Shown piece after piece: positions 7,552 through 61,643 of a stretch of 64,000 bases of DNA. Made by a program: the position numbers and the translations under genes. Where the stretch lies: positions 28,520,001 through 28,584,000 of the forward strand of contig OX597822.1 in the NCBI GenBank assembly GCA_951406725.2, read 5' to 3'. The notes beneath the pieces were generated by a model. That model was not told the DNA's origin. It saw nothing but the letters and a program-made list of their open reading frames with translations, and made no database searches. Source of the stretch: Octopus vulgaris. Its lineage: Eukaryota. The stretch's first letter is position 1. Each line of letters starts with the position of its first letter.

Positions 7552-9594
7552 ATGGAAACTTTTATTCTGATGTGCGTGCTTTCTTTTCTATTGTTCTTAA
7601 ATATTGTATCACATGCCACAGACTTCAACAACTGCAGCCCAGGTTTGTGTTCTGATCCTCCTGCATATGGCGTACCTGAACGTTGTTCGTGCCGCCCGGA
7701 CTGCTACCTCTACAATGAATGCTGTTCTGACAAGATTAATAAAACCACTTCTGATCACAAACAACCCTATCCATCAATATATTACAGTTGTAGAAAGCTT
7801 AGTGATTCATATTATTATCAGTTTGATCGTTGTCCACCTAACCATGATATTACAGAGTATGTGAACAAGTGTGAAAATCCTGACTCAGATGACCAACTAC
7901 AAAATATACCCGCTTTTGGTAAAACTAGTAAAAGATTATTTAGGAACCTATATTGTTCTTTGTGTCATGGAGAGGAATTCATTCTTTGGAATCTTTTATA
8001 TGAATGCAACTTCATCCTTTCTCCAAGCATTGAAAATATATCAAATTATGTCAATGATGGAATATGTACACCAACTCTGAAGCTTCCTTCAGAAGATTTA
8101 GAGAAAAATTTGTATTCCTGTATTCCATATATTTCGAATTGTCCTCAAGATAACAATAGTACGGAACAAAGAATCGCATGTGAATCCGAGGCCATGGCAT
8201 TAATATATTTAGATGAGGAAAAATATTTCATACATACTAAATATAAAGATTATTACTTTTACAAAAACAGAGGTTGTGCCACATGCAACGGGGTTTTTGA
8301 AGTACCGTGTAAATTATTTTATTTTGAAATGCTCGCAAGTCATGTTATTCCACCATTAACGATCCTCTTCAATTATCATACAAAATCCATAACGATAACG
8401 GGTGAACACATCGAAACGGAACATACGCTTCTGCAGTTACCATCGTGTCCAAAACACGCAGTCTACGATATGAATACTAAGGAATGTCGACAAGTTATCT
8501 ACAATCCTCAACTAAACTGTACGATAACAAGATTAAATGAATCTGAGTATCATATTACAAGCGATGGTCTCCTGTATATAAATAAAACTCAACGTTTTCT
8601 AAACCAATCAGAATTCACTCGTGATTCTCAAGGTATAATAAGTATCTGTGTAAACAATGGTACCAATAATATATCAAATATCAATGGTGTATCAAAATAC
8701 TCCATTGTTGAGGGCTATATCACTTTAGTAGGACTAGTAATCTCTATTCCAGCTCTAGCAATCACTATTATAGTCTATCTCTGTATACCTGATCTCCGTA
8801 CCTTACCAGGTAAATTACTCATTAGTCTTTTATCAGCATTGTTTGCAGCTGAGCTTCTCTTTCTTATCTCATCACAAGCCACTACATCTACAGCTCTGTG
8901 TACATCTTTAGCTATAGTGATACATTATTCGTTTCTAGCGACTTTCTTCTGGATGAATGTCATGTCATTTGATGCGTGGTACACTTTTTCGGGATTCACA
9001 CAGCTTCGGAGTAAAGGAAAAGGTACCAAGAGACTTGTATTATATTCTTTGTATGGTTGGATCTGTCCACTTGTAATAGTAACAGTATCACTGATATTTG
9101 AGTATATTCCTGGAAATCATGGACTTTCCCCAGAATATGGAAATGGTATTTGCTGGATTAAAAATGGAAAAGGTCTACTGTGGCTCTTTGCAATCCCTGT
9201 AATGATTATTTTATGTCTTAATTTCGTAGCATTTATCCTCACCACTAGAGGGCTTTATATGGCCAGCAAATTATCTTCAAAATATTTATCGAAACATAGC
9301 AGAAATGAATTTTTTATTTGCCTAAAACTATATCTTGTTATGGGACTAACATGGACATTCGCATTTCTGTATACGTTTACAAGAATTGAAGAATTTTCTC
9401 TATTATTTTGTATTTTAAATTCTTTTGTTGGATTATTTATTTGTGTATCGTTTCTATCAACAAAAATTGTTCATCGCAGTATTCTTCGTAATTTGCACAA
9501 AATTGCAAGATTGCCTACAAAAGAATTTACTGATGTTTCTTCTGCTCCTAAGACAATATCAACGGATGTATCAGCTGAAAGGTCAGTTAACTAA
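7552..9594 (+). CDS. Family-B (secretin-class) Methuselah-like GPCR with SMB-like/Cys-rich ectodomain, 680 aa (receptor 1)
   Basis: Uninterrupted ORF; hydrophobic signal peptide; CSCRPDCYLYNECCSD (somatomedin-B-like); Cys-rich ectodomain; seven hydrophobic helices with LRTLPGK, HYSFLATFFWMNVMSFD, YG..ICWI and MGLTW motifs; no GPS motif seen. Confidence 0.93.
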   Translation: METFILMCVLSFLLFLNIVSHATDFNNCSPGLCSDPPAYGVPERCSCRPDCYLYNECCSDKINKTTSDHKQPYPSIYYSCRKLSDSYYYQFDRCPPNHDITEYVNKCENPDSDDQLQNIPAFGKTSKRLFRNLYCSLCHGEEFILWNLLYECNFILSPSIENISNYVNDGICTPTLKLPSEDLEKNLYSCIPYISNCPQDNNSTEQRIACESEAMALIYLDEEKYFIHTKYKDYYFYKNRGCATCNGVFEVPCKLFYFEMLASHVIPPLTILFNYHTKSITITGEHIETEHTLLQLPSCPKHAVYDMNTKECRQVIYNPQLNCTITRLNESEYHITSDGLLYINKTQRFLNQSEFTRDSQGIISICVNNGTNNISNINGVSKYSIVEGYITLVGLVISIPALAITIIVYLCIPDLRTLPGKLLISLLSALFAAELLFLISSQATTSTALCTSLAIVIHYSFLATFFWMNVMSFDAWYTFSGFTQLRSKGKGTKRLVLYSLYGWICPLVIVTVSLIFEYIPGNHGLSPEYGNGICWIKNGKGLLWLFAIPVMIILCLNFVAFILTTRGLYMASKLSSKYLSKHSRNEFFICLKLYLVMGLTWTFAFLYTFTRIEEFSLLFCILNSFVGLFICVSFLSTKIVHRSILRNLHKIARLPTKEFTDVSSAPKTISTDVSAERSVN

Positions 9595-10337
9595 AATCTC
9601 AGATGCCCTGATGGAAAAAAAACCCACATGGAGGATATAGAGGTTCTCCCTCATATCCATTAGTGCTGATAGAAATAACAACGAAATTTTCATGAAGTAA
9701 TACCTTCGTAAAGAGAAGGAAATACGATTTTAAATAAACCATTGTTTGAAAAGAGGTCGGGATGATCAACGTTGGAATACTTGTGGCTGTGGATCCCGCT
9801 CATCGCGCTGAACTGTTGCTAAACGTTAACAACAGTAGCAATCGACTTTAAAAATCCTTAGTGCGAACAGCATTTAATGATATTTCTTTTGCTCCGGTAC
9901 CAATGTCTTTTCACGTATGTCATACATTTTTCAAATGGACAAAAATCAAGAGTATATTTCTCTCAGGAACGTTCAGATATCCTCTCTCAGTCCAACTGGT
10001 CATTGAAGTATTTTGATTTTCATGTTGATGTTTAAATGTTCAACAACTGTTTCTGCAAGATACTTATTGTTCGTCACTTAGCTGTGATTGTTATGTCAAG
10101 CAAGTTAGCTACATCATTTTCCCACTGACCCTGTATTGAAGGAAACATGGAATGTTATGATGACATGTGTATCGTTATGTATATGAATATATATATTTAT
10201 AATATTAAATGTAGATAGATAGATACATACATGACAATTTAAAAATGATAACAGGATCAATAATATAGGTGATTGCAGCCCCCCCCCCCCCCTCCCAACA
10301 AAAAAGCATTAAATAGCTGAATGATTAACATTAATCT

Positions 10338-10624
10338 AAGGACATACTGAGTATGTCTACCTGCTGGAAATAACAGACAAAACTCTTATTTAACTTACCA
10401 AAATACACTGATAATAACTACAAAAATCAACAGTCCGAAGGAAAACGTGCTAAGACAATCTCTCAGCATACATTTAAGTATTTGGACTCACATGGACCAG
10501 TTTCTGGACAGGCGTAATTGCCTTAGGAAGGCTGATTTCTATAGTTATTATCGGTGTATTTTGGCGATTTAACTAAGAGTTTTGACTGTTATTTCCAGCA
10601 GGTAAATATACTTGGTATGTCCTA
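10338..10624. mobile_element. MITE-like element with long terminal inverted repeats (about 85 bp)
   Basis: GGACATAC..TACCTGCTGGAAATAACAG..AAACTCTTA..CCAAAATACAC.GATAATAACTA is mirrored at about 10541-10624. Confidence 0.75.
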
Positions 10625-11654
10625 TGGCGTTATTTGACGTTGTTGAAAAGCTAGTGACTTTGTACCCAGAACAGTGGCCTTTAACCTCCTAAAGCGATAA
10701 AAACTAGAGACGGAGTTCTTTCTGTACCAAAAGCAAGGCGCGCTCGCGCGCACACATACACACATGCACAAACAGAACTATGTGTGTGTGTATGTATGTG
10801 TATGTATCTATCTATATACATATATAGGGATACAGATATTGTTTGCTCACTGTCACTAAGCATCTCAATTATTCAGTTGTAACTAGTTTGTGATCGAGGT
10901 ATTTTATTTTGTAAGGTACTATTTTCTCTTGAATTTATGATTTCAGAGAAAGCTAAGAAATTCTTCATATTTTGCGTCTTTGGCATTTTAACTTTACAAT
11001 TTGAATTGAAGTATTGTCTATCCAATCGAAATATTGCAACAGCCAACAGTGAAATATAGAATTTTTAAAAAGGCTCTTTCTACTGTTATCAAGTCATTGA
11101 GGAACATTTACGTCTATTTTTCAAAAATATATAATTTGAAATAGTTTGCCTTTGTTTTTGACTGAAAATTTTTTGCAATTTAATGTTCTTGAATAAACTT
11201 CATTGCATACAAAAGCTGAGACAAATATACTTCACAGTTGTTATTTTGAAATGCTTGTCTTCTGATATTTGTGATTTCATTCAATAAATATTGAACCCTA
11301 TTAAATATTGTTCTTCCTAAATATGAAATAATACGATAGTTCCAGCCCTAAATAGCTTTTTTAGGACTGTTTCTAATCTCATCTCGTCAGTATATTTACA
11401 TTTTTGTCTATATTTTCAACTGTTGCAATGCATTATACTTCACCCGTTGCTAGTTGTATTCGTCCAAATAAGTTTTTAAAATATATTTCTTTAAATACAA
11501 TAACAATCAATATTTCCTACGAAGATTGAAAAGTTCCTTTGTGATTTCGCATTGTAAATGCATTAAATTGATCATTTATTTATTAATTCGATCTTTTAAC
11601 AAAATTTGCAATTTACCGTATCAGCAGAAAAGTGTCCTTTGCTCCCTTACTACA

Positions 11655-11716
11655 TTAAGAACTGCCACTAAGCATTTTGCCCGGCGTGCTAATGATTCTA
11701 CTAGCTCGCCGTCTTC
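11655..11716 (-). mobile_element. SINE family B, 5' fragment
   Basis: Reverse complement of the GGCGAGCT.G.AGAATC.TTAGCACGCCGGGC head also seen at 21591, 31304 and 31657. Confidence 0.7.
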
Positions 11717-12499
11717 ATTAGGAAACTAATATTGATAATTATAATTCTATAATGTACACGTAACTATGATTTTGCTAAACTGTCTGATACATTAACATAA
11801 ACTTGATCAAATATTCTCTAAGTCTATATCATTTGCAAGAAAGTTAATAAGCCAAAAACATATTTAAGTGCCATTTCACAAATACTTTACGGTTATATTT
11901 TACCTATGCAACCAAATACTATATAGAGCTTCGTATTTGTTAAATGCTACAAACAGTATATTAGAATTATATTCAGGAATATTATTTAAACATTCCTTTA
12001 ATTGTATTTCTTTCCTTTTTATTTTTTTTGCTTTTTTTGGAGTTGACAAAATATTTATTACTTTAATTTCAGAATGTTATTCATTGATGGTTTCGGCAGA
12101 GAAACTTTCTTAATACTGAATTTTAATTCAGATTTTAGAATCTTTTTAGATACTTTATTTTTGTGAATGAAAATTATGAAAGCCAATTTTCAAATTTTAA
12201 CTGTCATGAATGTTGTCATATCAAATTGTAATGTGCAGACATATTTGCAACACAAGTAATAAAAAAATAATAAAACTATTTACAGATATTGTTATTTCTT
12301 TATTTCCTGGAATTTCTCGTTTCGGTTTCATTTTGTCTCGAGCACCAAGCGTAATCTGTTGTTTTATTCCTATTTTCCGTGTCTTGATCATCCATCATGT
12401 ATTTTTCTTTCTATAGGAACGACTTATGATGAAGACTTATAGCGAAAACTTTATAATAGTCTTTTGCTATGTTTTCTAGAATTTTATAGACACAGTCCA

Positions 12500-12660
12500 C
12501 ATATTGATGTCGTAAGGAGATGAAAATGTCAGAAGGGATAAACTTCGCGGAGCAAAACAGCTACAGAACGAGGTCGCTTTTGTGCTTTGCGAAAATATGA
12601 TTAAGAATCGACCTGTCAACAGGGGCATTGCTTTGGTGTAACAGCCATATTTTGTTTGTT
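12500..12660 (-). mobile_element. Highly decayed mariner transposase fragment
   Basis: WLLHQSNAP..FAK..PSDIF resembles the HDNAP..YSPDLAPxDF region. Confidence 0.45.
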
Positions 12661-13099
12661 CATGCTTTAAGACAGTATTTATTTGATTAACACAGAAAGC
12701 AGTTGTGACATACAGACTAATAGATTACGTGATATTCATGAATAATTATTTTACAAGATCTCCTGTTTGTAGTGATTGATATTAAATGTTGCAATAGCGG
12801 GTATATATCTTTGTTACTGGAGAAACTATAACGCTTTGTAATCCAAAATGCTTTCCACAGAAACTACACTGAGCTTCCATAAAAAATTAATGATAGCTTT
12901 GACTTTGATCGTGGAATTTCTTATTTCAGAGATAATATTAGATTATTTGCGAAAATGACTTTGTTTTTGCGCAGCATAATGACCAAATACTCATATTATA
13001 TATTTTTATTATTAGCTTGCCACTATCAGCTCCTACCATTGCAGAGTAACCACCATGTCCCCTAGATACAGCTGTACTTTTTCTAGATCAAAATCAAAT

Positions 13100-13300
13100 T
13101 TTGGAAACTGATGAATGAAGTAAATGACGTTGCTAGAAGTGCAGTTAAAGGAGTCACTGATATGATTGGAACGATGATGGATGCCTGTGAAGGTGGTATC
13201 GTTGGAGAGGTAGGGGCAAGTACGGTAGCGTGGGCGGGAGCAGGGGAACGAGCCAGGTCGGGATGTGGGGTTAGAAAGAAATTGTGGACCTGGAGGTCAC
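13100..13300 (-). mobile_element. Penelope-like GIY-YIG linker fragment
   Basis: PGSFPCSRPRYRTCPYL..FNCTSSNVIY. Confidence 0.7.
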
Positions 13301-13302
13301 GC

Positions 13303-13352
<50 letters not shown>

Positions 13353-13381
13353 TATACATATATATATGTATGTATGTATAC

Positions 13382-13417
<36 letters not shown>

Positions 13418-13779
13418 CTTCTATTTTTTAATTATTATACATCTTCCACTGTGGAGGGAGCCGGTATGGATGTATGTGTGTATGTATGTATGTTTGAAAG
13501 TATCTATATCTAACACAAGAATGTAAGGATTTCACAGTTGAATGTATTGGTTAACATATTGTTATTTTTGCATTAACGAATGTCGTTAGCACCTGATAAC
13601 CTACATCCGCCTAATTATTTCCATATCTCTACATCCTATTCATTTTCATTTTTTTATTGATGAAAATGTTTCTGTTAAGTTGCATATTATGCGTTTTTGT
13701 AATGTTTTCAGTGTTAGCGGCTTCCTTCAGTAATAAAGTATATTAATTATTTGTTCAATGCTTAGTTATGTTTAAATCT

Positions 13780-14460
13780 ACTGATGACATTTGCGAGAAT
13801 CAAATTGAAAACCTATAAGGCGAGGTGTTATTACAATCAACAAAGAACGAGAAAACCACTTCCTATCAATGAAGTCATTGATCACGAAGTCTTTTTAAGT
13901 ATGAATACGGTTATCTTGATCTTATATAAATAATAACGATCAAATTGTCGTCAACAATGAGATAAGTTCAGGTAAATCTCGAAGATGTTTTCCCAGTTCT
14001 TTTTTTCTTTTGTCTCAAATTCTTCCCTCAGATGCTGCTTTTTAATGTGTTTTATTCCAGATAAATCTTCCTACTAATGAACCTGATAAGAATCTATCAC
14101 AAATGTTCCAATTGAGATCGATGCTACTAATTTAAGGTTTCTCAGTCGAAGCCACTCTAATATCTATGTTGCTATCAAACCACTAACTATTACTTTTAAT
14201 TCTATAACAGTATTCTAATATATATAATAATTATACACCTGTTTTATCATTTAACCTAATATATAATCTAGTGCTTATATTTCTTTATATCGTATACATA
14301 GATGGAACCAAAACCTAAAATTTCCTCTAATATCTCATGGTATAATTGTAATATATTGTACCTTGAATAGTAATACTCTACAAATAAGCGATGATAAAAG
14401 CATTAGATTATCTTTTGTAAAGTGCAAATCTGTAGGGTATTAGTGAACGATCAATCAAGC
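13780..14460 (+). repeat. Second copy of the non-coding block at 2950-3780
   Basis: Collinear similarity, including donor-like CAG|GTAAAT near 13971. Confidence 0.7.
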
Positions 14461-14534
14461 ATGGCCAATGGATTAAAACTTTGTCGTTTAGCAAGTTACA
14501 ATAGCAACATTACATTTTATATATGCTTTATCCT

Positions 14535-14680
14535 TCAGGTGTTTTAATCATGAGACTGCGGTCAGAATTTTTAGTCGAATAAATCGATCGCAATACTTTT
14601 CATTTTTTTTTAAGACTGGTACTTATTTTATTGTCTTTTTGCACCGGTTATCAAGCGGGGAAGGGAGGTACACAGAGACA

Positions 14681-14717
<37 letters not shown>

Positions 14718-14887
14718 GCGCACACACATACACACATATATATATTAATAATAGAAGGATAAATATTATTAATTAAATTAATTAATTAATCAATTAATTA
14801 AAACTTTTACCAAGTAGATCGGTACGTTAAAATAACCTTTATAGATAAAATTATCCACATAATTTTAGCTGAAACCTAATTAAATTA

Positions 14888-14924
<37 letters not shown>

Positions 14925-15000
14925 GGCTTCTTTCTGTTTTCGTCTACAAAATCCACTCACAAGGCTTTAGTCGACCCGAGATTGTAGTAGAGGACACTTG
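14535..15000 (-). mobile_element. Degenerate SINE family A with an AT-rich insert in its microsatellite
   Basis: AAATCCACTCACAAGGCTTT..GACACTTG and ACTTATT/GACTGCGG tail segments. Confidence 0.65.
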
Positions 15001-15910
15001 CGAAACACAGCCTCCATTTGTTTGTGTAGCCCTGTATCATTTCTGTCCACAGATAGATGTGTATTCGTAAATGCAATGCATATTACTCGATTGCATGCAG
15101 AACGCAATTTTGTGCTTGCTGTTGCTTTGTGGGAGGTCTCAGATATTTATTTTGAAAAATTGGTGTGATCGTTGGCTTTGCAGCAATGGTGGCCACCTGG
15201 GGAAGGTCTATTATTTATGGCTGCCTTAGGTGGGGGCGTGCATTGCTTAGTTCTAAAGGCTTCCTGTATAAGACTTCCCAGCCACGGTGGTTTCATCCTT
15301 ATTCGAACAACTGGCAATATAAGACTACATAAAACTAAATCCCCTGCGTTTTAACAGTTTTGAGACAGTTTTCTCATTAATTTGTTTGATCATTTTATGG
15401 TGAACTTGTTTATTCACCAAATCCATTTTGTTGACCCTTAGGTGCCCAGTGAGTGGAGATAAGAAAACAACATGTAGATAGACATAGGGATTCGACATTT
15501 CACTTCGCCCTTATTATATCGAGCCAAAGTTACAATCCTAAATTTGTTTTCGTTCTAAATTTCGTTCTTGATGGATTTTAATTTCATTATCTTTTCTATA
15601 GTTTATTCACAATGTCGGAGAAGCTAACCTTTGAAATCAATTCACTAAAACTAATATAAATATAATTAACCATCTGTTATACCAATGAGATGATAGCAGA
15701 AAATATTTTACATACATGAAATACAGAAGACATAACTCTAAATATATCTGGGACTTCATGGGGTTATCGTTGAACATTGACTAATTGTTTTTAGTCAACG
15801 GGAGAATATGTTACCCTACATTCAAATAGAAAGCAAAGTGAAATGAAGATGATATGACGTGTGAATGATACTGAAAAACAGTATATCATATAACTTCTGA
15901 ATCACCCAAT

Positions 15911-16330
15911 ATACAGCAACGTGCAAAAGTCTCTGACCACTTTAAAATACTGTAAATTTCTATTAATTGCCAACTTATTAGTGCATGTTTCGCATTGCGT
16001 TTTTTACAGATGAAACATTGGCCCAGATGACGTCACGTCATTTATATACCTGATCATTATATTTTGTAGTAGGGGTTCTGAATGAGAGGATGAGATGCGA
16101 GACAACCACCCAAAATGGCCGTACAAAATTTTTCGGCCACCTCACATTAACTGGCAAGATACAGTATTTTAAAACAGAAAAATGTCTATAATGAAATTTT
16201 ATTACATAATGTTCATTTCAAGAAGTTACTATACGTTGTTAACATTTCGTGTGGCTTCCCTTAGATTTAATAATCACTTTAATGCGCCTGAGAAGACATG
16301 CATACAAATCCTTCGCCATCTTCACAGGTA
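15911..16330 (-). mobile_element. Tc1-like transposon end (transposase C-terminus and TIR)
   Basis: LYACLLRRIKVIIKSKGSHTKC* resembles Tc1 RRxxAVIxxKGxxTKY; TA-CAGCAACGTGCAAAAGT terminal motif. Confidence 0.65.
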
Positions 16331-16331
16331 G

Positions 16332-16333
<2 letters not shown>

Positions 16334-16384
<51 letters not shown>

Positions 16385-16512
16385 TGTATGTATGCATGTA
16401 TGTATGTATATATATATATATATATACATACACACATACATATACATACATACATACATATATATATATGTGTGTGTGTGTATGTATGTATGTATGTATG
16501 TATGTGTGTATG

Positions 16513-16546
<34 letters not shown>

Positions 16547-16642
16547 AACGTATGTATGTATGTATGTATGTATGTATGTATGTATGTATGTATGTATGTA
16601 TGTATGTATGTATGTATGTATGTATGTATGTATGTATGTATA
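16334..16642. repeat. Compound (TA)/(TG)/(TATG)n microsatellite
   Basis: Direct reading. Confidence 0.95.
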
Positions 16643-16644
16643 CG

Positions 16645-17078
16645 AGTAAATGTAAGAACACGCAAGTTAGACAAGTCGATATACACAAAATATTAAATAA
16701 ATTTAATACAAAAAATGGCCATATAAAAAGTCTGACTTAAACAAAATATAGATGATATCGGGAATTTAAGAGGTTGAGGTTAGGTTTTCTGGGGGCTTGA
16801 GGTGTTGACAAGATCGAATATATAATTCTTTCCTGAATACGGAGGTGGTGTTATCCGATGATGGAGTCAAGTTACTATCATTATTCCGGACCACCAAGCC
16901 TCCAGAAACAGGTGTTAGACTCGTAGAACTCAACTCCTTTAATTCCTGATACTATTTACATTCTGTGTACGTCGAACTTTTTATATACATGCATATGTAT
17001 ATTTTTTGTATTAAATGTATTGTACTTAATATTTTGTGCATATCGATTTGTCTAACTTGCACGTCCTTACACTTATTC
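16645..17078. repeat. Imperfect fold-back (palindromic) element
   Basis: TGTAAG..GCAAGTTAGACAA.TCGATAT.CACAAAATATTAA mirrored at 17027-17078; inner arms about 16755-16780 and 16927-16952. Confidence 0.7.
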
Positions 17079-17729
17079 CTCAGCCTGCTCAAGTTCAAAT
17101 CTCTTGAACCCTACGATGTGAATTCTCTCTCTCTCTATCTCTCTCTCTCTCTCTCTCTCCCTCTCTCTCTCTCTAATATATATAATATTTACACTCACTA
17201 AATTATCCATTATACATGAAAAAAACATTTCCGCACGTAATGCAGTGTTTCTGTCGCCTATTCATCTTTGGCCCTACGGTACTGTTAACTTTAAACTTTT
17301 ATTAGGCGACTGAACTCTCATTACAGAAAAAGTCAAATGAATATCACAGATCTTCTAGTGGATGGCAAAATCTTTATGGTTTTCAGAAGCAAACCAGAAA
17401 AATACATTTTGTATCATCTTCACAGTGTTGTTAAACGACTGGAAGACAGAAATTGAAAGAACTTATTTTCAATAAACACACTTGTATTACTAATTGGTTC
17501 TCGTGACATTGCTTTCCATAGAGAAAACATACTAATAGATTCAAACAAAGTCTTTACAAGTACTACATTGGAATAGAAGAGGTGACTGTAAAATCTTTTG
17601 GAAAATTATTCAGTTAGTCATTTATACTTTAATCCATAAAGAAAACGAACAGATGAAATATTGCAAAGACATTTTAAATTTTATAGTTTTTCCATTAACT
17701 TTCAAAAGATTCTTGATCAGTTAATTATT

Positions 17730-18560
17730 AGGTCATTAAGTATTAAATTTGTAGTAAGGTATATGGTAAACTTTGACACCTACTCATTTTGCGCTATTAT
17801 TATATTTTAACAAACTGTATTTTTTATTAGAAAGCTGACACATCAATTTCTTTATTCTAACTCATTTTGCGCTTTATAAGTATTTATAAATCTTTGTTGC
17901 TATTTATGTTTAAAGATGGATAAGCCGGAAATTCGTACAGTTTTGAAATATGAGTTCTTTCTTGGAAATACAGCATCACAAACAGCTCGGAATATTAATG
18001 GAGCGTTTCATTCTATTGTTATTACACAGCAGACAGTATCAAATTGGCTTATAAAAAATTTCGTTCTAGTAACTGTGACCTCACAAATGAGCAATGCGGT
18101 CAAGCTAAAACAAAGGTTGATAATGACGAACTGAAAGCCATCGTCGAGTCAGATCCATTTCAAAGTGCCCGTGAATTATCGTTGTTGTTTGGTGTTAGCA
18201 AAAAAACAATATTGACTCACCTAGTTCAAATCGGTAAAGTGAAAAAGCTGGATGAGTTCCACATGAACTCAATGAAAATCAGAAATAGCAATGTTTGGAA
18301 TCTCGCATTATGCTACTTTCTTGTCACAAAAATGAATCATTTTTAATCGAATTGTAACATGTGATGAGAAATTGATCCAATACAACAACCGTAAACGTTC
18401 AGCACGATGGTTGGACAAAGACGAGCCACTAAAACAGTCTAAAAAGCAAAATTCATCAAAAGAAGCTGATGTATGTGTTTGGTGGTTTGGCGCAGGAGTA
18501 ACCCGTTATGATTCATTAAATCTGGTTCATCAATCTGGTTCATCAATCACGGCCGAAGTA
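17730..18560 (+). mobile_element. Mariner transposase pseudogene (N-terminal two-thirds)
   Basis: MDKPEIRTVLKYEF..TARNIN..TVSNW / KKFRS..DNDELKAIVESDP..HLVQIGKVKKLD / FLNRIVTCDEK..WW; frameshifted. Confidence 0.9.
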
Positions 18561-18579
18561 TAAGGCATGGACAATCAGA

Positions 18580-18740
18580 ACCTGGATGTCCCACCGCGAC
18601 AGCGCACTTGTTTGCATGTCGCATCTTTTACCTGATTTTTCGCAAACCACAAGAGGTATCTCGTTCTTCAGCAATATTGCTCTCTGGAGATGGCACCAGC
18701 GGACATTTTTTTCCACAAAGTTGAAATTTAGGCCTAAACA
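18580..18740 (+). mobile_element. Decayed mariner catalytic-domain fragment
   Basis: WMSHRDSA..DF..TKLK resembles WxxHxDNA..APxDFFLFPKLK. Confidence 0.45.
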
Positions 18741-20060: not shown

Positions 20061-20186
<126 letters not shown>

Positions 20187-20255: not shown

Positions 20256-20304
<49 letters not shown>

Positions 20305-43416: not shown

Positions 43417-43992
43417 GAGGTGGTGGTGCTGGTGGTAGTGGTGGTGCTGGTGCTGGTGGTGGTGGTGGTGCTGGTGCTATTGCTGGTGGTGGTGCTGGTG
43501 GTGCTGGTGCTAGTGGTGGTGGTGGTGGTGGAGGTGCTGGTGGTGCTGGTGCTGGGGGTGGGGTGGTGTGGTGGTAGTGGTGGTGGTGATGGTGGTGCTG
43601 GTGGTGCTGGTGGTGCTGGTGGCGGTGGTGACGGTGGTGGCGGTGGTGGTGGTGATGGTGGCGGTGCTGGTGGTGGCGGTGGTGGTGCTAGTGGTGGTGG
43701 TGGTGGTGGGGCTGCTGGTGGTGGTGGTGGTGGTGGCGGTGGTGGTGCTAGTGTTGGTGGTGGTGGTGGAGGTGCTGGTGGTGGTGGTGCTGGTGGTGGG
43801 GGGTGGTGGGGTGGTACTGTTGGTAGTGGTGGTGGTGATGGTGGTGCTGGTGGTGCTGGTGGTGGTGGTGCTGGTGGTGCTGGTGCTGGTGGTGGTGGTG
43901 GTGGTGGTGGTGGTGGTGGTGGCGGTGCTGGTGGTGCCGGTGCTGGTGCTGGTGCTGGTCGTCGTTGTTGTTGTCGTCGTCGTCGTCGTCGT
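43417..43992. repeat. G-rich (GGT/GCT)n low-complexity array with an internal higher-order duplication
   Basis: About 575 bp of GGT/GCT/GGC triplets ending in (CGT)n; the motif GGGGTGGTG..GGTAGTGGTGGTGGTGATGGTGGTGCT recurs at about 43560 and 43800. Confidence 0.9.
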
Positions 43993-48999: not shown

Positions 49000-49950
49000 A
49001 ACATTATCATCTAACAATGAAATTTTTAATTCTCATTCAAATAATTATAATGTTACTTTATCTGGAGCTGGATACGACCAGGAAATCACCTTCCTAGATC
49101 TTGATAATATAAGTCTTTCAAATGGATAAGTGAATGAAAATAGCGGAAATAATATGGAATCTTCTATTTTAAAAAAAGTATAAATCAATTAAAACGAGTA
49201 ACCTAGTATATAAACCTGATACAATAATTAGAAATGGAAAACAGATCATAAAGAGTATAAAAAGTTTAAGCTAGATAAAATAAATATAAATTATAATTTT
49301 AAAAATTCTCTCCCACAGAAAAAAAAACTAATAAACATAAATATAAAACTAAAGAGAATAACGAATCTCTAAAGGGTACAGATAACATTAATCTTCGCAC
49401 CCTTACTCAAATAAAAGAAATTCAAAAGAAAAAATTTTGTATGGTTAAATATCCCCTTCAACTGTTCGATTTCTACGAACCTATACGGCGAATTTAGGTC
49501 TATACTAGAAAACAACTTCCCTGCTTCCCATAAATATTATAAAATAATTTCTAATAAATCAGTAAGAATATCATACTCTACTCTTCCAAATATGGGTACT
49601 ATAAGAGCTAGACTAAATAGAAATAATATCAAGTTAGCTAGAAATGGAATAAATAGTAACAACAACAACAACAACAACAATAATAATAATAATATTAATA
49701 ATAATAACATGATTATTAGCAATAATAATGATAACATCAATGATATAAATGATAAAAATAAAAATGTGGAATGTGAGGAAATTGGGAAAAGATTAATAAC
49801 AAACAACCCTAACTTACATAACAATATAATTATAGATAAGGGAAATAACACTAATGCTAATAACAGCTCTAGTAATGAAAATGAAAATAGCTTGTTCCTA
49901 AATAATACTAATACCAGGAATCATAAAAGCCAATATGGTATATAAAAGCT
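49000..49950 (+). mobile_element. Penelope-like fragment (RT end, linker, Asn-rich tract)
   Basis: EITFLDL; WLNIPFNCSISTNL..NFPASHKYYKII..VRISYSTLPNMGTI, then poly-Asn. Confidence 0.75.
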
Positions 49951-51647: not shown

Positions 51648-52050
51648 ACTCGTTTACTTGTTTCATTCATTTGACTGCGGCCATGCTGGAGCACCGCCTT
51701 TAATCGAGCAACTCGACCCCGGGACTTATTCTTTGTAAGCTCAGTACTTATTCTATCGTTATCTTTTGCCAAACCGCTAAGTTACGGGGACATAAACACA
51801 ACAGCATCGGTTGCCAAGCAATACTACGGGAACAAACAAAGACACAGAAACATACACGCACACATATATATATATATATACATATATACGACGGGCTTCT
51901 TTCAGTTTCCGTCTACCAAATCCACTCTCAAGGCTTTGGTCGGCCCGAAGCTATAATAGAAGACACTTGCCCAGGGTGCCACGCAGTGGGACTGAACCCG
52001 GAACGATGTGGTTGGTAAGCAAGCTACTTACCACACAGCCACTCCTGCGC
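51648..52050 (-). mobile_element. SINE family A, full length
   Basis: GCGCAGGAGTGGCTGTGTGGTAAGTAGCTTGC head through GCAGTCAAATGA tail. Confidence 0.9.
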
Positions 52051-52308
52051 CGGTTATAAACGTTTCGATATAAATTAAATTCGCTGTGCTATTGGATTCC
52101 TTACTCGCTTCCTTTAATTAATGAGTTTCGCCTCAGTAACTTCCCTTACACTAGCTTCCGTAAATTTACCATTGTTTTTCACTATTAGCTCTAACCAAAC
52201 AGAACACAGATCTTCATTATTTCTTTAGAATCATTCATATTATGACGTACCTTATCCGTTTAGTTATCACTTTACAAGTCGTATTTTTATTATTATTATT
52301 ATTATTAT

Positions 52309-55300
52309 CTTTTTTCTTCTTCTTTCAAATTTGCTTCCATTTCTTGCCGAGTGTCTTCCCGACTCCTAGGGCAAAGAAACTCATAGTATACATTGGTAGG
52401 CCATTAAACTAAACTCACTAGTTCGTTCATTTCTTTTTTTTTAAGTTAAATTAAAATACATGGGTAGTAATAGTTATCACATCGACAATGCTCTTCTCAA
52501 TACGTGTGATGTACCAGTTAAGACAATCTTTTGCACTACTTGCAAGGATGGTAAGCCAGGGATCATTCTCATATAATTTTCGGTTCCCTTCTTGATCATT
52601 CCTAGTGCTCCTACGATCACTGGTATTGTAACCGCCTTGAGATACCACATTTTCTCAATTTCAATGAGTAGGTCTTTATATTTTCTGAGCTTGTCAAACT
52701 CTTTCGCTGAGATACTATCATCACAGGGGATGCTCATGTCGATCAATAAGCAAACTTTATTGTTTTGGTCTTTCACAACAATATCTGGTTTATTGGCCTT
52801 GATGGTTCGGTCTGTATGTACTGGAAAGTCCCACAGAATCGTTACATTTTCTCCTTCAGTTACAGCCTCAGGGTGGTGATTGTACCACTTGTCGGCAGTT
52901 CTGACATTGTAATGCCGACTTATTAGCCAGTGTAGATATTGGCCAACTCTGTCATGTCTTAATTTATACTCCTCTGGGGCTAAGACTTTACATCCAGAGA
53001 TTAGGTGGTCCACTGTTTCAATCATGTCGTTGCAGAATCGGCATTTTGGGTTTGTTCAAGTTTTCATCACGTTGGCCTGGTAGTTCCGGGTTATTAGGCT
53101 TTGATCTTGAGCAGCCAGGATGAAACCCTCACTCTCTGCTTTTAGCCCAGAGCTCCGTAGCCACTGATGGGTTTGCTTCTGGTCAACATCAGCTTGTTTG
53201 CTGCGGGCCACATATTTGCCGTGCAGAGGTTTCTCCTCCCACCTATCAGCCAATTGCTCGTGCGCTTTTTTCGTTGCCATTATTTTCACCTTCTTTGCAA
53301 CAATAGTTGCCATACATCCCTCGGGTTGTTCAGTTTCTGTATCCTGCACGAGATCAATAGCAAATGTTTTGCTTTCCTTTATGATAGAATGAAGCTTCTT
53401 TCGTCTCTCGTGATTTTCCAAGAGCTTTAGCATCCAGTCATTCGTTATTTCGAGATATTTGGCCAGTCCAATTATGGTTGTTTTGTAAGCTTGTTCAAAT
53501 TGGATCAGGCCTCGACCTCCTAGGGCTCTGGGAAGGTAAAGGCGATCTACGTCTGCCTTTGGGTGGTGCATCCTATTACAACTCAGCAGCTTGCGTATTT
53601 TCCTATCTATATTCTTTACCTCACTCATATTCCAGTTAAACACATTGTAGCTATAAGTAACAACTGGAATTGCTAAGGAATTTATAGCTAACACCTTGTT
53701 ACGTGCATTTAGTTCAGATTTCAGGACTGCACGAACTCTCCTATAACATTCCTTCCTGATCTTCTCTTTCATGCTTGCATTCTGAATACCAGAGCCTTTA
53801 TTTATCCCTAAATATTTGTATGTTTGTTCTTGCTCAAGCTCTCTTATGACTGTGTCAACATCTAACGCGACTGCATTTGTGGTCTTCCCTTTCCCTTTCT
53901 GGAAAGTGGCCTTGGCACACTTCTTAAGTCCAAACTCAATCCCGATGTCATCGCTGAATGTTTTCACAGTGCGCAATAGGCCTTCAAGTTCATTATTGTC
54001 TTTACCATAGAGTTTTAAGTCATCCATATAAAATAGATGGCTTATTTTTTTATTGGCAATTTTATACCCATACTCTGTTCTGTTTAATTCACTTGTAAGG
54101 GGTATTAGGGCTATGCAGAATATTAAAGGTGAAAGTGAGTCACCTTGAAAAATTACACAGTTGATGTTTATATTTTCTGAGGCAAGTACTCCATTAGAGT
54201 GGTATAATTGGAGATTCGTATTCCACAACGACATATTGTGCTTCAGAAAGTTTGAAATCACAGGGGAAATTTTGAAGATGTCCAGCGATCTCAAGATCCA
54301 TGGATGCGGTATACTGTCGAAGGCCTTTTTATAGTCAATCCATGCGGAGCGAGATTTCTGCGCTTGTTGTGACAGTTCTCCAGGATCATACGATTAATAA
54401 GCAGTTGATCTTTGCATCCGTATGAGCCTCGGCGGCACCCTTTTTATTCAATGGGGAAAATATCGTTCTTCTCCATGAATGCATATGTTTCCTCCGCCAG
54501 GATAGATGTTAGGATTTTATGCGTGGTGGATAGACAGGTTATAGGCCGATAGTTTTTTGGAAGGTTGGTTTCGTTATTCTATGGGAGTAGGTAAGTAATA
54601 CCACTTGCTAACCAATCAGGTGTTTTCTTTGGGTCTCTCATAATTCCATTGAGCAGCTGAACTAGCTTACCGTGTGCACATGGGAGCGATGCGATCCAGA
54701 AATTCGGCACTCTATCTTTACCGGGGAATTTCCAATTATGGGCCTTGATGAGTGCCTTTCTTAGGTCTGCTATTGTGATGTCTTCCCCATGCTTGTTGTC
54801 GTAAATTTTGGTAGGATCCTTCAGTTTGTAAAAACCAGTCTGCATTTATGTTGTACGTCTTCTTGTCACTCCAAATCCATTTCAAAAGTTTTGAACTTCT
54901 TCCATGGGAGGGGGGTCTTTAACGGTTACTTTCTCCTTCCCTATTTCTCTGTAGAATTTTTTGGCATTGGATGTGAACAGCTTATTTTGCTTGTAAAACT
55001 TGTTTCTCTTCTCAAATCTTCGTATTCTTTGGGCTTTTGCTTGGACTTTTTGTTTCAGCGTTTCTTTTATTGATATCAGTTCTTCTCTTGGTGAGGATCC
55101 AAATTTTCTCTGCATCTTTCTTCCTGTTCTGGATCTTACATCATTTCCACATATTAGTTCATTTAATATTGATATTTCCCCTCTCATAAATTCAATCTCT
55201 TTTTCAATTTTACTTCTCCTGGTTTGGTTTTCTTTGTTTTTTCGGGGGCATACAGCTGGTTTCAATTGCCCTAGCAGAAGTGTAAATAATTTCATTTAAC

Positions 55301-56165
55301 TCAGGAAAATCAGGTTTTAATTCTTGTATTATTTCAGTTGCCAATTTGGATTTGTTTTTTATTTTGGTTTGTATTTGAGAGTTTATGAAGTAGTTCTCTA
55401 TCATTCATACTTGTATGTCTTACAACTTCAAGCGTATTCAGGATTTTCTGCCTCATTTCTGCCATAGACTCTCTATGTTCTTCAGCAAATGCGAAATCTT
55501 CAGTTACTGTTGTTTTATCATTTTCCTGGCTATCTTCAACAGGTACAATAGAATTTCTTGTATCTTCAGGCCTTTGCGTACTTTGGTCAGATGGCAGTCT
55601 TTCAATTAAGCCTCGTGGCGGGCTATACTGTTCATCTGATTCTTCATTTCCTTTGTGTCTTATATTTATGTCATTTTCCGTTGCGTGCTTGATCGCGCTT
55701 ATTTCAGTGTTTGTGAGTCTGTTATTTCTAAGGATATCCCTCATCACATTTGCCAATTTGTTCTCGTCCAAATAGGGCCTACTGTCTTGATTCCTTGTTC
55801 TCCATATACTGTAAGAGTTTGCGGTGTGTCTCTCTTGAGATGGCCTACCTAATGCATAGTAATAAGCGTATATTACTTCTTTATACTCTTCTCGGGTCCA
55901 TTTGTTCCGCTTACATTTTCTTTCTGTGGTGGTTGTGGTGGTGAACTTAGAGGGCTCGAGTTGGAGGATTTCCCGTTCAAGTGACCATCCATGTCCGTAT
56001 TCGGAGAAGAGTTTGTGTCAGTTTCGATCCCAGGCTGGCTCTTCCCTGGGGGACGCGCTTCCAGATTAACCATAGGACAAGTGATTTGGTTAGTTTCCAA
56101 AAACATTTTGGTGCGACGATAATGTTATCATTTTTGAGCTTTGATTGGCACGTGGGGAAACGGCC
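52309..56165 (-). mobile_element. Near full-length R4/Dong-clade non-LTR retrotransposon (RT, CCHC, restriction-like endonuclease), inactivated
   Basis: NYRPITCL, WIDYKKAFDSIPH, IFQGDSLSPL, YMDDLKLY, CRFC..ETVDHLISGC, RHD, NKPDIV..ID..K..KY; the ORF is broken into several frames; 3' end abuts (TAA)n. Confidence 0.9.
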
Positions 56166-57212
56166 ATCATTGCTGTTACTATTATAATCGTACCATTATA
56201 GCAGCCGTAGTCGGCTTATTATTGTTATTATCATCACCATTATTATCACTATCATCATTATTATCACCACCATTACCATCATCATTATCATCAACTCCAT
56301 CATCATTATTATCATCAATAATATAGTTTTATGTGTAGTCACAGCAGTATCTTATTATTGTTATTTTTGTTTTTTATCATTATCACCATCACAGTAGTGT
56401 CTGTGTGTCTCGTTGGCTGGCTTGGTGGTTGGCTGGCTGGCTGTCTTCAACGCCAGAGTTCTTGCCTGTCAAATAATACTTTCATATTTGGTTAACATCT
56501 AAAGAGCCGAGGTGAGGTTTGTGTTGGTTGAACTATGTGAGTGTGTGTGTGTGTGTAGATAGATAGATAGATAGATTATCAGCACTATTACTATCATTAT
56601 TATCATCATCACCATCATCACCATCACCATCAGTGATTTTTTTTTTTTTTCAGGTGGGGTCTTATCGGTCAAAAAAAGTTCAAATTTTTACTACTACTTA
56701 AGAAAAATTAAGGAAGGGCTGTTCTGTATTGTTTGTGGATAGAGAAGTTGTGTTCGACCAGAGAGAATCTTAGCATCATTATTTTTTTTTTTCATATGCG
56801 TTTGTGTTATTGCAATAAAAAGTGTTTGTTTATTTCGTGTAAGGTTTATTTATGGAGGTTGAAGTTGACTTTCTAGAGATGTTTGTATGTCCAGTTAGAA
56901 GAACAGGTGTGTTTTTGCAATAAAAATTATATGTTTACATTTATATTTGAATATTCAGGAAGGAAGCAGAGAAAAGTCAGATTTTCAAAGAAAGTTTTAG
57001 TGTTTTGAAAGTCCACAAATAGAAAAGCGTGATGTTTTTAGAGAGAAGAAAAAAAAGGGTGTTTAGAGAGGCAGTTGTGGGTATTAAAGTTTTTGAAGCT
57101 GATCGGATGTATGTTTGAAAGCTGTAGATATGTAACTTTGTAAATATCTTAACTTATTTTGAAGAGAATTTTAAATACTTACAAGATATTGTAGATGTTC
57201 CAGTCTTTCAGA

Positions 57213-57257
<45 letters not shown>

Positions 57258-59651
57258 TATATCAGTTCTATTATATGTGGTTAATAGGCTCCAACTATTG
57301 AATACACTAATTTTTTTTAAACTTGTGTGATGCAATAATTTGGGCTAAACAAATATTCTGCCGATTAGGGTTTAAAAAAAGTAAATTACACGGCTTTGAG
57401 TGGGCTCACTTGGACTTTAAATGATATGGACACTAAACATACCGTTGGGTATTCGAAACGTGATCTCTGCTTGGAAGAATCATTCCATATCCTTACTTGT
57501 ACTTTCAGATTATTTAATCCCAGAAACAAATTAGCAGTAAAATGCGCACAGTTATTTAGAAAAGTTTTCATTATTTCCAAATAAGATTCCTTATTTACAA
57601 ATCACGTAGATGAAAGTACACATAAGTTAACCCAGTTAGCTTATATTGCAAATTTACTTACGTTTTAATAAATTTTCACTAATCCTAACTATTATTTATT
57701 TTTTGGAAGGGGAGAAATAATACAAAATATGGTTAGAATGAATATTTACTTCACACAACATATATTGATTAAGCTTACGTTAACATCTCAGATTGTTTAG
57801 CAAAATCTATTGTAATTCATAGAGCAGTAAATGAAACGGTATTGATTAATTGCTTTGATTTCATAATATTAGCGCAAAGGTTTTGTAATTTAGATAATTA
57901 TAAAAAAAGGGACACTTTTTCCTTCATGCAAATTCATATATATTAGTTACATAAATGGAATAAATGAAGATTGGAACAGCAAGGCTAACTGGAAATATAC
58001 AACACGAGCCGAGCTTTCAGAATTAATATTGACTGGACTCGATTCAGAGAACGGATAAGGCAAGAAATGTTACGCTTTCCCAACAACATTAGCAATATCA
58101 GTTCACGTTTACACAGAAACCTGCAGTAATGTTACTTAAAATCTACTGATAACGTTTACTGAGAAGCTCAAACTATATCGGTAAATTTCATGGAAGATAA
58201 CTTTCAAATTTCGTTCAGCATTTGAAATAGCAGCAGGCAAGCTATGTTAATAGAAAGAATGACTATAACAGAGAGGCTTTTCAGTCTTCATAAACCTATA
58301 GAGGAACATGGATATTCAACACGTAATAAAAAACAAATTTTGTATTTATGAAGTGCTTTTTATTATATTCTCTTTATATAATTTAATATTACAGATATAG
58401 AGTACGTAAGTTAAAATGCTCATCATTAATGACAGGATATTATGATTCATTTAATCCCGTTGTTTTACTATGTATTAGACCATAAGAATAACAGCTAAGG
58501 AGTCGACATCGTCTGATTATTATATGGTATACATATCGTGGTTTGGATATTGTCATTGATTTAACACATTTATATGGAAGTAATACCACAATAAGAAATA
58601 GCGTTTACAATACACTGATTTTGCTCATGGCGAAACAATTATTTTCTTATGCAAAACGACCAAAAGACTTGTTGAAAATATTATAAAACTGGTGCGATAT
58701 TGTCAGCATTCTTTTTAACAACATCAGATCTCTCCGTAGATAACGTTTAACGGACAGAAAGGGAAACGCCCAGCAACATTTTGCTTGCTGGACAAATAAG
58801 AGCTGATTATTAGAGAATTAATTGGATAACTGAAAGCGACGAATAATAATATTTTAATAGAGTTGGCATAGAAATGCGATACATGAGTGGTAGACTATTA
58901 TCACACACACTAGTATCTCTACAAATCCCGTTACATGTGACGTAATAAATGTTTTTCAAAGCGTTTTCCGAAACGTACATCAGGATTATTCCAAATGTGT
59001 GAGGAAGAGATTATATAATATAGGAAGTCAACGAGACTATTTAAAACCATTTAAAATCGTTTGAGCGAACTAAAAGACAGGGAGAGAGACATGAGTGAGC
59101 TCAAACTTCATAAAACCCACATATTCGTAAAATGTTAGGTCAACAGAAAATAAATGGGATACAAAAAAGAATAGAAAAAAAGGATACAATAAAATTACTA
59201 ACTATATGGGATTTTCAGCAAAAAGTGAGTCCGTTCAACAGCTCAGGTGGACATGAAAATTTTAATATATTGAAGAACAGAAGAAATTGCCAAAAATAAA
59301 AGGGCAAGTTACTGAAAGAAATAGGCACGTACCCTTCACACTTGCAAGGCGTTTATCTTATACGAATTCAAATAGAATCTAGAAAACATAACTTTTCTTT
59401 TTTCGTTTTTTTCATTTCTTTTTTCCGAATCGGCATTTTTCCGAATCGGAATTTCAGTTCAGAGTGTTGTTAATTGTTGAACTTGGTAACCTCAGCTGAT
59501 TCATAGTCTCGAAGATCTATAGTCAAAGGTATTCTAGTAACAGCCATCACGTCATTTATTCAGATTTAATATATAATTTATTATCCATTATTTCCATCTT
59601 CATTCCACTGACGATATTGAGTAACCCACATTGGTTAGCTTGACTGCACAA

Positions 59652-61643
59652 CTAAGGAGTTATATTCGTTGATGTTGTTTTATGAGCGAAATTAACATCA
59701 ACAGATTCTTTTGCGGATGTTTTTGTAATTTTTTGCAGATTCTGAAAAATACTACGTCGAGCAATACTTGTTGATAGAAACGATAAACATATAAGTAATC
59801 CAACGAATGAGTTTAAAATACAAAATAATAGAGAAAATTCTTCAATTCTTGTAAACGTATACAGAAATGCGAATGTCCATGTTAGCCCCATGATAAAGAA
59901 TAGTTTTACGCAAATGATAAACTCCAATTTCTTATGTTTTGATAAATATTTCGAAGAGAGTTTGCGTGCCAAATACAGCCCTCTAGCGGTGAGGGTAAAC
60001 GCTATGATATTAAGACATAAAATAAACATTACAGGGATTAAATAAAACCATAGCAGACTTTTTCCATTTTTAATCCAGCAAATATCTTTTCCATACTCTG
60101 GGGAAAGTCCATGATTTCCAGGAATATACTCAAATACCAGTGATACTGTTACTATTACAAGTGGACAGATCCAAGCATACAAGGAACAAAATACAAATCT
60201 CTTGGTATGTTTTCCTTTACTTCGAAGTTGTGTTAGTCCCGAGAAAGTGTACCAAGCATCAAATGACATGACATTCATCCAGAAGAAAGTCGCTAGAAAC
60301 GAATAATGCATTACTACAGCTAAAGATTTACACAGCACTGTAGATGTAGTAACTTGTGATGAGATAAGAAAGAGAAGCTCAGCTGCAAACAGTGCTGATA
60401 AAAGACTAATGAGCAATTTACCTGGTAAGGTACGGAGATCAGGTATACAGAGATAGACTATAATGGTGATTGCTAGAGCTGGAATAGAGATTACGAGTCC
60501 CACTAATGTGATATAGCTCTCAGCTACGGAATATTTTGATATACCATTGATATTTGATATATTATTGGTACCATTGTTTACACAGATACTTATTATACCC
60601 TGAGAATCACGAGTGAATTCTGATTGGTTCAGCAAACGTTGGGTATTATTTAAGTAGAGAAGATCATCATTAGTGACGTAATACTCAGATTCATTTAATT
60701 TTGTTGTCGTACAGTTTAGTGCAGGATGGTAGATGACTTGTCGACATTTCTTAACTCTCAAATCGTAGATAGCGTATTTTGGACAGGAGGGAGACTGCAC
60801 ATGTCTATTTTCCGTTTGGCCTAATTCATTTCTTACCTTTACAGTATTGGTATAATAATCAAAAAGTATTGTTAGAGGAAAAGGTTCTACTCTGTAAGCT
60901 ATTTCACGATAATTCACTTTACAAATATCACTGGAAAACCCGTTGCATATAGCACAACCTTTGTTTTTGTAAACTTTAAGAAATTTATATATGCCATTTA
61001 CAAGGTAGTCTGTGCTAGACTCCATATATATCAATGCCATTGGCTCAGACTCACATGCCATTATTTGTTCCTTATTATTGTTATCTTGAGGACAATTCGA
61101 AATATATGGTGTACAACTATGCAAATATTTGATCAAATATGATTGAAGCTCTACTGTTGGCCTACATCTATCCTTGAGATAATTTGATATATTTTCAAAG
61201 GTTACATTAGAGATTCTGTCGCAGTTATATAAAAGATTGCAGAGAATGAATTCCTCTCCATGACACAGAGCACAATACAGGTTCCTGTAGAGTCTTTTAC
61301 TTGTTTTACCAAAAGCAGGAATGATCTGCAGTTGATCCTCTGAGTCCGGATATTCACAGTTGTTAACATACTCAATAACATCATGGTTATCTGGACAACG
61401 GTCAAACTGATAAGCATAATAATCACCAGCTTTTCGGCAACTCATAGTTGGGTAGTATGTGATAGAAGAGGTCTTATGAATAATGTCAGAACAGCATCCA
61501 TTGTAGAGGTAGCAGTCTGGTTGACACGAACAACGTTCCGATGCGCCATCTGAACACAAAGCTGGGCTACAATTGTTGAAGTATCCTGCATGTGTTATAA
61601 CACTTGAGAACAAAAGAATGCAAACTAAAAACAATGTTTCCAT
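59652..61643 (-). CDS. Family-B Methuselah-like GPCR, 663 aa (receptor 4)
   Basis: Intact paralog; ATG at 61643 (METLFL) aligns with the starts of the other copies; same domain order. Confidence 0.93.
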   Translation of the reverse strand: METLFLVCILLFSSVITHAGYFNNCSPALCSDGASERCSCQPDCYLYNGCCSDIIHKTSSITYYPTMSCRKAGDYYAYQFDRCPDNHDVIEYVNNCEYPDSEDQLQIIPAFGKTSKRLYRNLYCALCHGEEFILCNLLYNCDRISNVTFENISNYLKDRCRPTVELQSYLIKYLHSCTPYISNCPQDNNNKEQIMACESEPMALIYMESSTDYLVNGIYKFLKVYKNKGCAICNGFSSDICKVNYREIAYRVEPFPLTILFDYYTNTVKVRNELGQTENRHVQSPSCPKYAIYDLRVKKCRQVIYHPALNCTTTKLNESEYYVTNDDLLYLNNTQRLLNQSEFTRDSQGIISICVNNGTNNISNINGISKYSVAESYITLVGLVISIPALAITIIVYLCIPDLRTLPGKLLISLLSALFAAELLFLISSQVTTSTVLCKSLAVVMHYSFLATFFWMNVMSFDAWYTFSGLTQLRSKGKHTKRFVFCSLYAWICPLVIVTVSLVFEYIPGNHGLSPEYGKDICWIKNGKSLLWFYLIPVMFILCLNIIAFTLTARGLYLARKLSSKYLSKHKKLEFIICVKLFFIMGLTWTFAFLYTFTRIEEFSLLFCILNSFVGLLICLSFLSTSIARRSIFQNLQKITKTSAKESVDVNFAHKTTSTNITP

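Follow-up and report, generated by a model that had tools for sequence, protein, structure and literature searches.

A window of 64,000 nucleotides from the genome of Octopus vulgaris (contig OX597822.1, positions 28,520,001 to 28,584,000 of the forward strand; its own numbering is used for all features within it) contains four copies, labelled A, B, C and D, of a Methuselah-like family-B G-protein-coupled receptor (GPCR) gene. The copies of the tandem array to which they belong, the others being labelled L0xx, are mosaics, and a loop of 15 residues in the ectodomain (residues 242-256 in D) shows diversifying selection, in the form of an excess of replacement changes, with the rest of the ectodomain conserved or near neutral. 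The array comprises 35 copies over 0.7 Mb of contig C9 (28.19-28.89 Mb), namely 20 intact copies, 12 broken ones and 3 fragments, and these counts are a floor, as the genome search was strict. On balance, we consider it probable that gene conversion keeps the stalk and the seven-transmembrane (7TM) part of this mosaic array alike, that the loop sets which protein or peptide is bound, and that the ligands are most likely fast-evolving proteins met by the skin, suckers and nerves of the arm. Mosaicism and the selected loop are additions to the work of Ritschard et al. (2019), which reports purifying selection only in the sections covered, and neither was found in the literature searched, which reached few subscription journals.

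The mosaic nature of the copies is apparent when the 20 intact ones are compared, L009 being left out on account of a stop. Among them, from the ectodomain to the 7TM part, mean protein identity rises from 0.48 to 0.71 and pooled synonymous divergence (dS) falls from 1.21 to 0.62, with nearly equal ratios of nonsynonymous to synonymous change (omega, 0.36 and 0.30); estimates for the whole ectodomain lie at about 0.36-0.42. Since the dS of the 7TM is about half that of the ectodomain at a similar omega, much of what the earlier note on this DNA had taken for a constant 7TM would be the product of homogenisation. The same direction is seen in eight close copies (dS 0.53 in the ectodomain vs 0.31 in the 7TM), in D and L003 (0.545 vs 0.127) and in 39 of 48 non-independent pairs within groups, the other 9 showing the reverse. 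Among the copies of the reverse-strand block, to which D belongs, the 7TM (residues 371-625 of D; 59769-60533, minus strand) is homogenised, with 95-100% identity in most windows of the comparison. Pseudogene C is itself a chimera: its first ~200 codons are 89-100% identical to L003, and the sequence beyond is 87-89% identical to D and 61% to L003, with an N-terminal part of ~220 codons of the L003 type and codons about 226-275 of the D type. Moreover, approximately unbiased (AU) tests on the trees of four partitions rejected 11 of the 12 cross-comparisons at p<0.05. Two points weigh against this picture, namely that AU tests of maximum likelihood (ML) trees of partitions are biased toward rejection and that the indel-rich alignment may inflate the dS of the ectodomain. 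The mosaicism appears to stem from gene conversion together with unequal crossing-over, strongest in the stalk and the 7TM. An apparent exchange of the 7TM between L011 and P0005 of O. sinensis (55 of 255 residues differing) was left unused, as the predicted isoform may be chimeric.

The selected loop of D (60876-60920, minus strand) runs from the Cys that follows the second CxxCN motif to a conserved PLTILFD strand. Codon site models of the GY94 type, in our own implementation, were fitted per partition to nine close intact copies after removal of gapped columns. For residues 136-286, twice the log-likelihood difference (2dL) reached 31.3 for M2a over M1a and 29.5 for M8 over M8a, with sites at D 240-253, and the M2a/M1a value dropped to 1.5 without residues 242-256; in the same models, residues 25-135 and 287-370 gave no selection signal. 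The observed M2a/M1a value lies above all 24 null simulations, the maximum being 2.0 in 10 plain runs and 12.8 in 14 runs with recombination and a deeper segment, 3 of which exceeded 5.99. Site L573 in the 7TM (2dL 15.3) was discounted, being near the maximum of the recombination null. The omega of the 7TM in the site models, 0.31, matches the published value of 0.306 for the family (PMC6408891), which may mean that the 7TM carried most of the weight in that published test.

Young duplicates point to the same loop. In three non-overlapping pairs (D/L002, L003/L005 and L014/L015), 28 of 96 replacement sites in the loop have changed, against 1 of 30 silent sites (Fisher p=0.002), and ML gives p=0.002-0.005 under four settings; residues 20-241 of these pairs have an omega of 1.2-1.5 (not significant) and the 7TM one of about 0.25. 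Five D-type copies carry five different loops that align free of gaps. In O. sinensis, three full-length D-type paralogues differ at 7-11 of the 15 loop residues and at 0-3 of 49 residues in the region of the Somatomedin B (SMB)-like motif. The earlier proposal of a variable ectodomain on a constant signalling module therefore holds in part, the contrast being due partly to gene conversion and partly to one hot loop.

Several observations weigh against selection on the loop. Its boundaries were set post hoc, after the data had been seen, although L014/L015 lies outside the set used for choosing it; the loop alignment of that pair needs a gap of 2 codons. One of the young pairs holds a copy with a stop, and dropping that pair brings the p value to 0.06. 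The codon models are our own code rather than PAML, and with a free local dS the loop omega of 1.4-3.1 (9 older copies) is not significantly above 1, probably as a result of saturation. Distant relatives, too, have loops of differing size and sequence (67 of 137 with 19-42 residues), so that this site is structurally tolerant, and the ectodomain model has low confidence (predicted local distance difference test, pLDDT, 56), leaving the surface position of the loop presumed. With regard to the array, some of the broken copies may be assembly errors. Lastly, the published analysis, as far as covered here, gives no selected sites along with its omega (PMC6408891). Neutral birth-and-death with subfunctionalisation of expression, as proposed by Ritschard et al., would accommodate that published result, the low omega of the whole ectodomain, the non-significant free-dS test and a loop that varies in all relatives, if the loop is unconstrained and its apparent selection an outcome of recombination, alignment or post hoc choice. 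We regard this as rather improbable: silent changes would be expected in a loop that evolved neutrally or was acquired by conversion from a distant donor, whereas the young pairs show nearly all change at replacement sites, and none of the 14 null simulations with recombination reached the observed statistic. Selection on the loop after duplication is the reading retained below.

The window genes belong to an already published family, group 4 of Ritschard et al. (PMC6408891), where the parts covered describe 45 Methuselah-like sequences of two species as an expansion specific to octopus, with tandem duplicates on two scaffolds, divergent tissue expression and homogeneous purifying selection. 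By accession, 13 of the 22 O. bimaculoides entries of group 4 were matched to close database relatives. In a quick tree of 47 rows with support from the Shimodaira-Hasegawa-like approximate likelihood ratio test (SH-aLRT) only, A groups with A0A0L8GFU5 (support 99) and B with A0A0L8GGP4 (98), both of which are group 4 in Table S2. The placement of the 7TM in the Mth/Mthl clade is taken from the same paper, the supplement of which holds a row for cd15039 (Mth/Mthl clade, CDD) under A0A0L8H6V6, equivalent to P0009. In its results section (e), Scaffold40771 is called group 4 in the text and group 3 in Table S2. Database matches above 40% identity are all from Octopus, the next being abalone at 28%, with an uncertain coverage of squid in the database. 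The lineage-specific tandem expansion and the birth-and-death evolution proposed in the earlier note are both borne out. L025 is a 99-100% identical duplicate of L021 with one frameshift, which may have arisen very recently or through misassembly.

For many of the copies, a 1:1 orthologue is stably retained in each of three Octopus species. The orthologue of D is P0050 of O. sinensis, from which it differs at 4 of 663 residues (P0001, a first impression, was replaced by it), and in residues 207-286 A and B differ from their orthologues in close species at 1 of 79 and 0 of 70 positions. The loop of D is identical to that of P0050 (0/15 differences), which counts against ongoing rapid change of the loop. 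Together, the stable orthologues and the identical loop are more in keeping with copies that diverged once duplicated than with an unbroken immune arms race. Expression of the O. bimaculoides orthologues is biased towards arm tissues: for A (Ocbimv22034325m) sucker accounts for 79% and skin for 15%, and for B (Ocbimv22034326m) axial nerve cord accounts for 79%. Expression data are available for 21 group 4 genes of that species, of which 10 peak in axial nerve cord, 4 in sucker, 2 in skin and 5 in other tissues. A caution here is that the published figures give shares of bulk-tissue expression, to which cross-mapping between paralogues may contribute; the table has no column for haemocytes or white body. 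None of the outcomes that the earlier note had named as contrary to its proposal (few copies with 1:1 orthologues across molluscs, housekeeping expression or no transcription) was found.

These data also bear on the nature of the ligand. The family may serve diversifying peptides, cytokines or cell-surface proteins of the octopus itself, in wound, stress or neuronal signalling of the arm, with a loop that co-evolves with duplicated ligands, a view that we find possible but doubtful; the known ligand of an Mthl receptor is endogenous in the source as far as covered (PMC6439351), axial nerve cord is the commonest top tissue, and orthologous loops are stable between sister species. It has to contend with near-total replacement of the loop in very young duplicates and with the loss of 12 of 32 full-length copies. 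Such loop turnover and copy loss are faster than is usual for hormone receptors. Small-molecule chemoreception, with a ligand held in a 7TM pocket as in odorant receptors, would suit clustered genes of a single coding exon and the sucker or skin bias of 6 of 21 genes, but it seems very unlikely, as the 7TM is precisely the homogenised part under purifying selection (omega 0.25-0.31), whose pockets would hardly diverge. Since the selected loop sits in a large, Cys-rich ectodomain while the 7TM beneath it is homogenised, the ligands are more likely to be proteins or peptides than small odorants. In Drosophila, Mthl10 binds a peptide cytokine, growth-blocking peptide, according to the part of the report covered (PMC6439351).

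The favoured mechanism starts from what was observed directly, that is the array, its broken copies, the mosaic pattern, the replacement excess in the loop, the splicing of gene A and, from published data, the tissue bias of orthologues. Unequal crossing-over would create and kill copies, and gene conversion would homogenise their signalling half. New copies would be retained once their loop gains a new specificity, with selection after duplication rewriting the loop, and binding of a ligand at the ectodomain would activate a common G-protein pathway. Separate leader exons, homologues of which occur upstream of A, L009 and L012, would permit tissue-specific use. A more tentative best guess has proteins of foreign origin or associated with damage as the ligands, in place of stable hormones. 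A stronger version, in which a germline-encoded repertoire of the arm senses foreign proteins through the one selected loop, conversion shuffles that loop onto a shared chassis and some coding exons are spliced from a shared leader, is possible, though less likely than not.

Its boldest form, which we consider far-fetched, makes the loop a protease bait ahead of a Stachel-like strand in a tripwire GPCR devoid of a GAIN domain. Foreign or wound proteases would cut the bait and free the next strand, which would act much as the tethered agonist (Stachel) of adhesion GPCRs. The loop has low confidence in both structure models and lies directly ahead of a conserved strand, with the consensus x-[S/P]-[F/L]-S-I-L-[L/F]-D in 124 of 137 distant homologues. 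A matrix trained on Stachel sequences ranks this strand first among the ectodomain 9-mers in 36 of 124 and among the top 3 in 62, the Stachel of Hydra falls within the top 0.09% under the family matrix, and the 7TM is nearest to that of adhesion GPCRs. In the five cluster genes scored, however, the strand is outside the top 3 and has Leu in place of the key Phe. Its distance from the first transmembrane helix (TM1) is ~115 residues, with two Cys modules in between, and there is no His-Leu-Thr/Ser site. Furthermore, the motif is also found in P0065, which has no 7tm_2 match, and far from TM1 in L035, suggesting a structural strand. Protease sensing of this kind therefore appears highly improbable.

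With regard to the individual copies in the window, the three intact and one dead paralogue anticipated from the sequence are confirmed by the open reading frames (ORFs): gene A (7552-9594, plus strand; 680 amino acids), gene B (24719-22623, minus strand; 698 amino acids) and gene D (61643-59652, minus strand; 663 amino acids) are intact Methuselah-like family-B GPCRs with pairwise identities of 70-78%, and pseudogene C (about 40652-38739, minus strand) is a broken copy with ~5 frame changes, 1 in-frame stop and a deletion of ~23 codons in TM3. The inversion noticed earlier is real, but it does not concern A, which has the plus-strand orientation of most of the cluster; the other three window copies (B, C and D) are the first members of a block of 10 reverse-strand copies. 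The boundary between the two orientations, between A and B, is also present in O. bimaculoides. The sole Pfam match of A, B and D is 7tm_2 (E 1.6e-31 to 8e-29), and seven helices are predicted in the structure model of D. The predicted absence of a GPS was upheld, with no Pfam match, a regular expression that found none in the 20 intact copies, and 63 genome-wide GPS matches that all lie outside the cluster. Likewise, the Cys-rich ectodomain and glycan-rich stalk were recovered, with 33-35 Cys and 9-11 N-glycosylation sequons per protein, the latter concentrated ahead of TM1.

The ectodomain of D begins with an SMB-like motif of 7 Cys (residues 25-51; 61491-61571, minus strand), followed by two Cys-rich repeats of the form CP...C...YxNxxCAxC (residues about 81-241; 60921-61403, minus strand), which are homologous to each other (hhalign probability 95.6%); the loop comes next, with low pLDDT at residues 242-253. 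The SMB-like motif is real, yet it stays below the Pfam cut-off: PF01033 matches 15 of 24 ectodomains at E<=10, with a best E of 8.6e-4, and SMB domains from the PDB match at E 0.85-8.5 only. The Somatomedin B domain has a pattern of 8 Cys. Database relatives carry Pfam PF28443 (DUF8401) in their ectodomain. Methuselah_N matched none of the 24 ectodomains at E<=10, nor was there a fold match to it with the low-confidence model; Foldseek with that model gave no match at E<=0.001, and a profile search of the PDB with the ectodomain gave only matches at E>=0.07. The membrane-proximal Cys module may resemble the last subdomain of the Methuselah ectodomain.

This ectodomain design is old. Its profile matched 2,934 sequence clusters at E<=0.001, and 26 of 27 sampled proteins with the ectodomain also had 7tm_2; species were named for 4 of 10 matches looked up, namely Capitella, Paralvinella, Argopecten and Blattella. 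The design is common to annelids, scallop, abalone and cockroach, and the expansion alone appears to be specific to octopus. In non-arthropod Mthl receptors, repeated lineage-specific expansions and SMB domains in some members have been described, with the Methuselah_N ectodomain confined to an arthropod subclade (de Mendoza et al. 2016, PMC4768249, in the parts covered). Outside the cluster, the O. vulgaris genome holds four distant single-ORF paralogues on C3 and C9 (L031-L034; 610-721 amino acids, 25-31% identical to D), in which the strand after the loop is nearer the Stachel consensus than in the cluster genes. A larger one, L035 (C17:64793000-64798500), has an ORF of 884 amino acids with an insert of ~250 residues between the Cys modules, which may be SEA-like.

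The single coding exon foreseen for these genes holds for A, B and D, but A also has a spliced non-coding leader exon. Its 3' part lies at 3063-3126 (plus strand) with a GT donor at 3127, the 5' end lying beyond the mapped part, and a GT-AG intron of 4.2 kb in the 5' untranslated region follows (3127-7293, plus strand). One contig, from a sequencing run whose RNA nature is a guess, joins the leader to position 7294, with an exact 30-nt match at 3095-3124, and parts of the coding region of A are covered by contigs of all four runs examined, with 0-1 differences and at low depth. Together with orthologue expression, mostly in sucker, skin and axial nerve cord, this spliced contig agrees with the transcription and arm-tissue bias that had been expected. 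The leader exon contains a short upstream ORF within 3095-3126 (plus strand), ending just ahead of the splice donor. The stretch immediately ahead of the leader recurs as a 78% copy at 13740-13859 (plus strand), with no plus-strand coding exon after it in the window; this second occurrence may be a relic of a lost gene copy.

The occurrence of leader homologues upstream of A, L009 and L012 led us to reject one leader shared by the entire array. Shared-leader splicing within sub-clusters is plausible. The intact copies L019 and L024, both outside the window, start only 0.6 kb and 1.7 kb after the stop of the preceding gene, so that a leader of their own would hardly fit. One O. bimaculoides gene model spans a neighbouring coding exon, and consecutive O. 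sinensis accessions give two different coding exons as isoforms X1 and X2. At 28.872-28.883 Mb (L020, L019, L018) and 28.436-28.442 Mb (L013, L024) of C9, intact exons are duplicated along with ~100-250 nt of the intron end, and it is possible that the coding exons in each of these two groups are alternative cassettes on a shared leader.

Other features of the window include a degenerate non-LTR (long terminal repeat) retrotransposon between C and D (52477-56017, minus strand; RVT_1 E 1.4e-21), which is broken by stops. A stop-to-stop frame of 176 amino acids at 49415-49945 (plus strand) may resemble the C-terminal part of a Penelope-like element, and a GGT-rich microsatellite of 540 bp at 43419-43959 gives rise to several spurious long ORFs.

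The cluster was thus known and reported under uniform purifying selection, a picture that mosaic copies and a selected loop reverse. In these orphan receptors of the octopus arm, the loop is now a named site for loop swaps. Furthermore, an ectodomain with an SMB-like motif and two DUF8401-type repeats is common to thousands of invertebrate sequence clusters and has no solved-structure match here, so that one deorphanisation would inform a large and little-studied branch of GPCRs.

Compared with known systems, the closest is group 4 of Ritschard et al. itself (PMC6408891), which lists the orthologues of A and B and shares the tandem arrangement and divergent expression. Its two scaffolds correspond to one cluster here, with mosaic copies and a selected loop, and the text covered of that paper does not describe the ectodomain architecture. 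Non-arthropod Mth/Mthl receptors (PMC4768249) have in common the family-B 7TM without the Mth ectodomain, the lineage expansions and, in some, SMB domains; octopus data and the double-repeat DUF8401 ectodomain do not appear in the text covered. Drosophila Mth and Mthl10, which are peptide or cytokine receptors (PMC6439351, in part), share the 7TM family, as stated in the two papers just named, the tandem expansion and a Cys-rich ectodomain, but the octopus ectodomains lack a Methuselah_N match. Adhesion GPCRs (ADGRL3, ADGRD1 and ADGRG2) are the closest solved 7TM structures by profile (E 5e-36) and by fold, whereas the octopus copies have no GPS/GAIN and a single coding exon. As in diversifying families of non-self receptors, a positively selected ectodomain site is present, in a loop delimited post hoc, but the rapid change of such sites between orthologues of close species is not seen in the loop of D.

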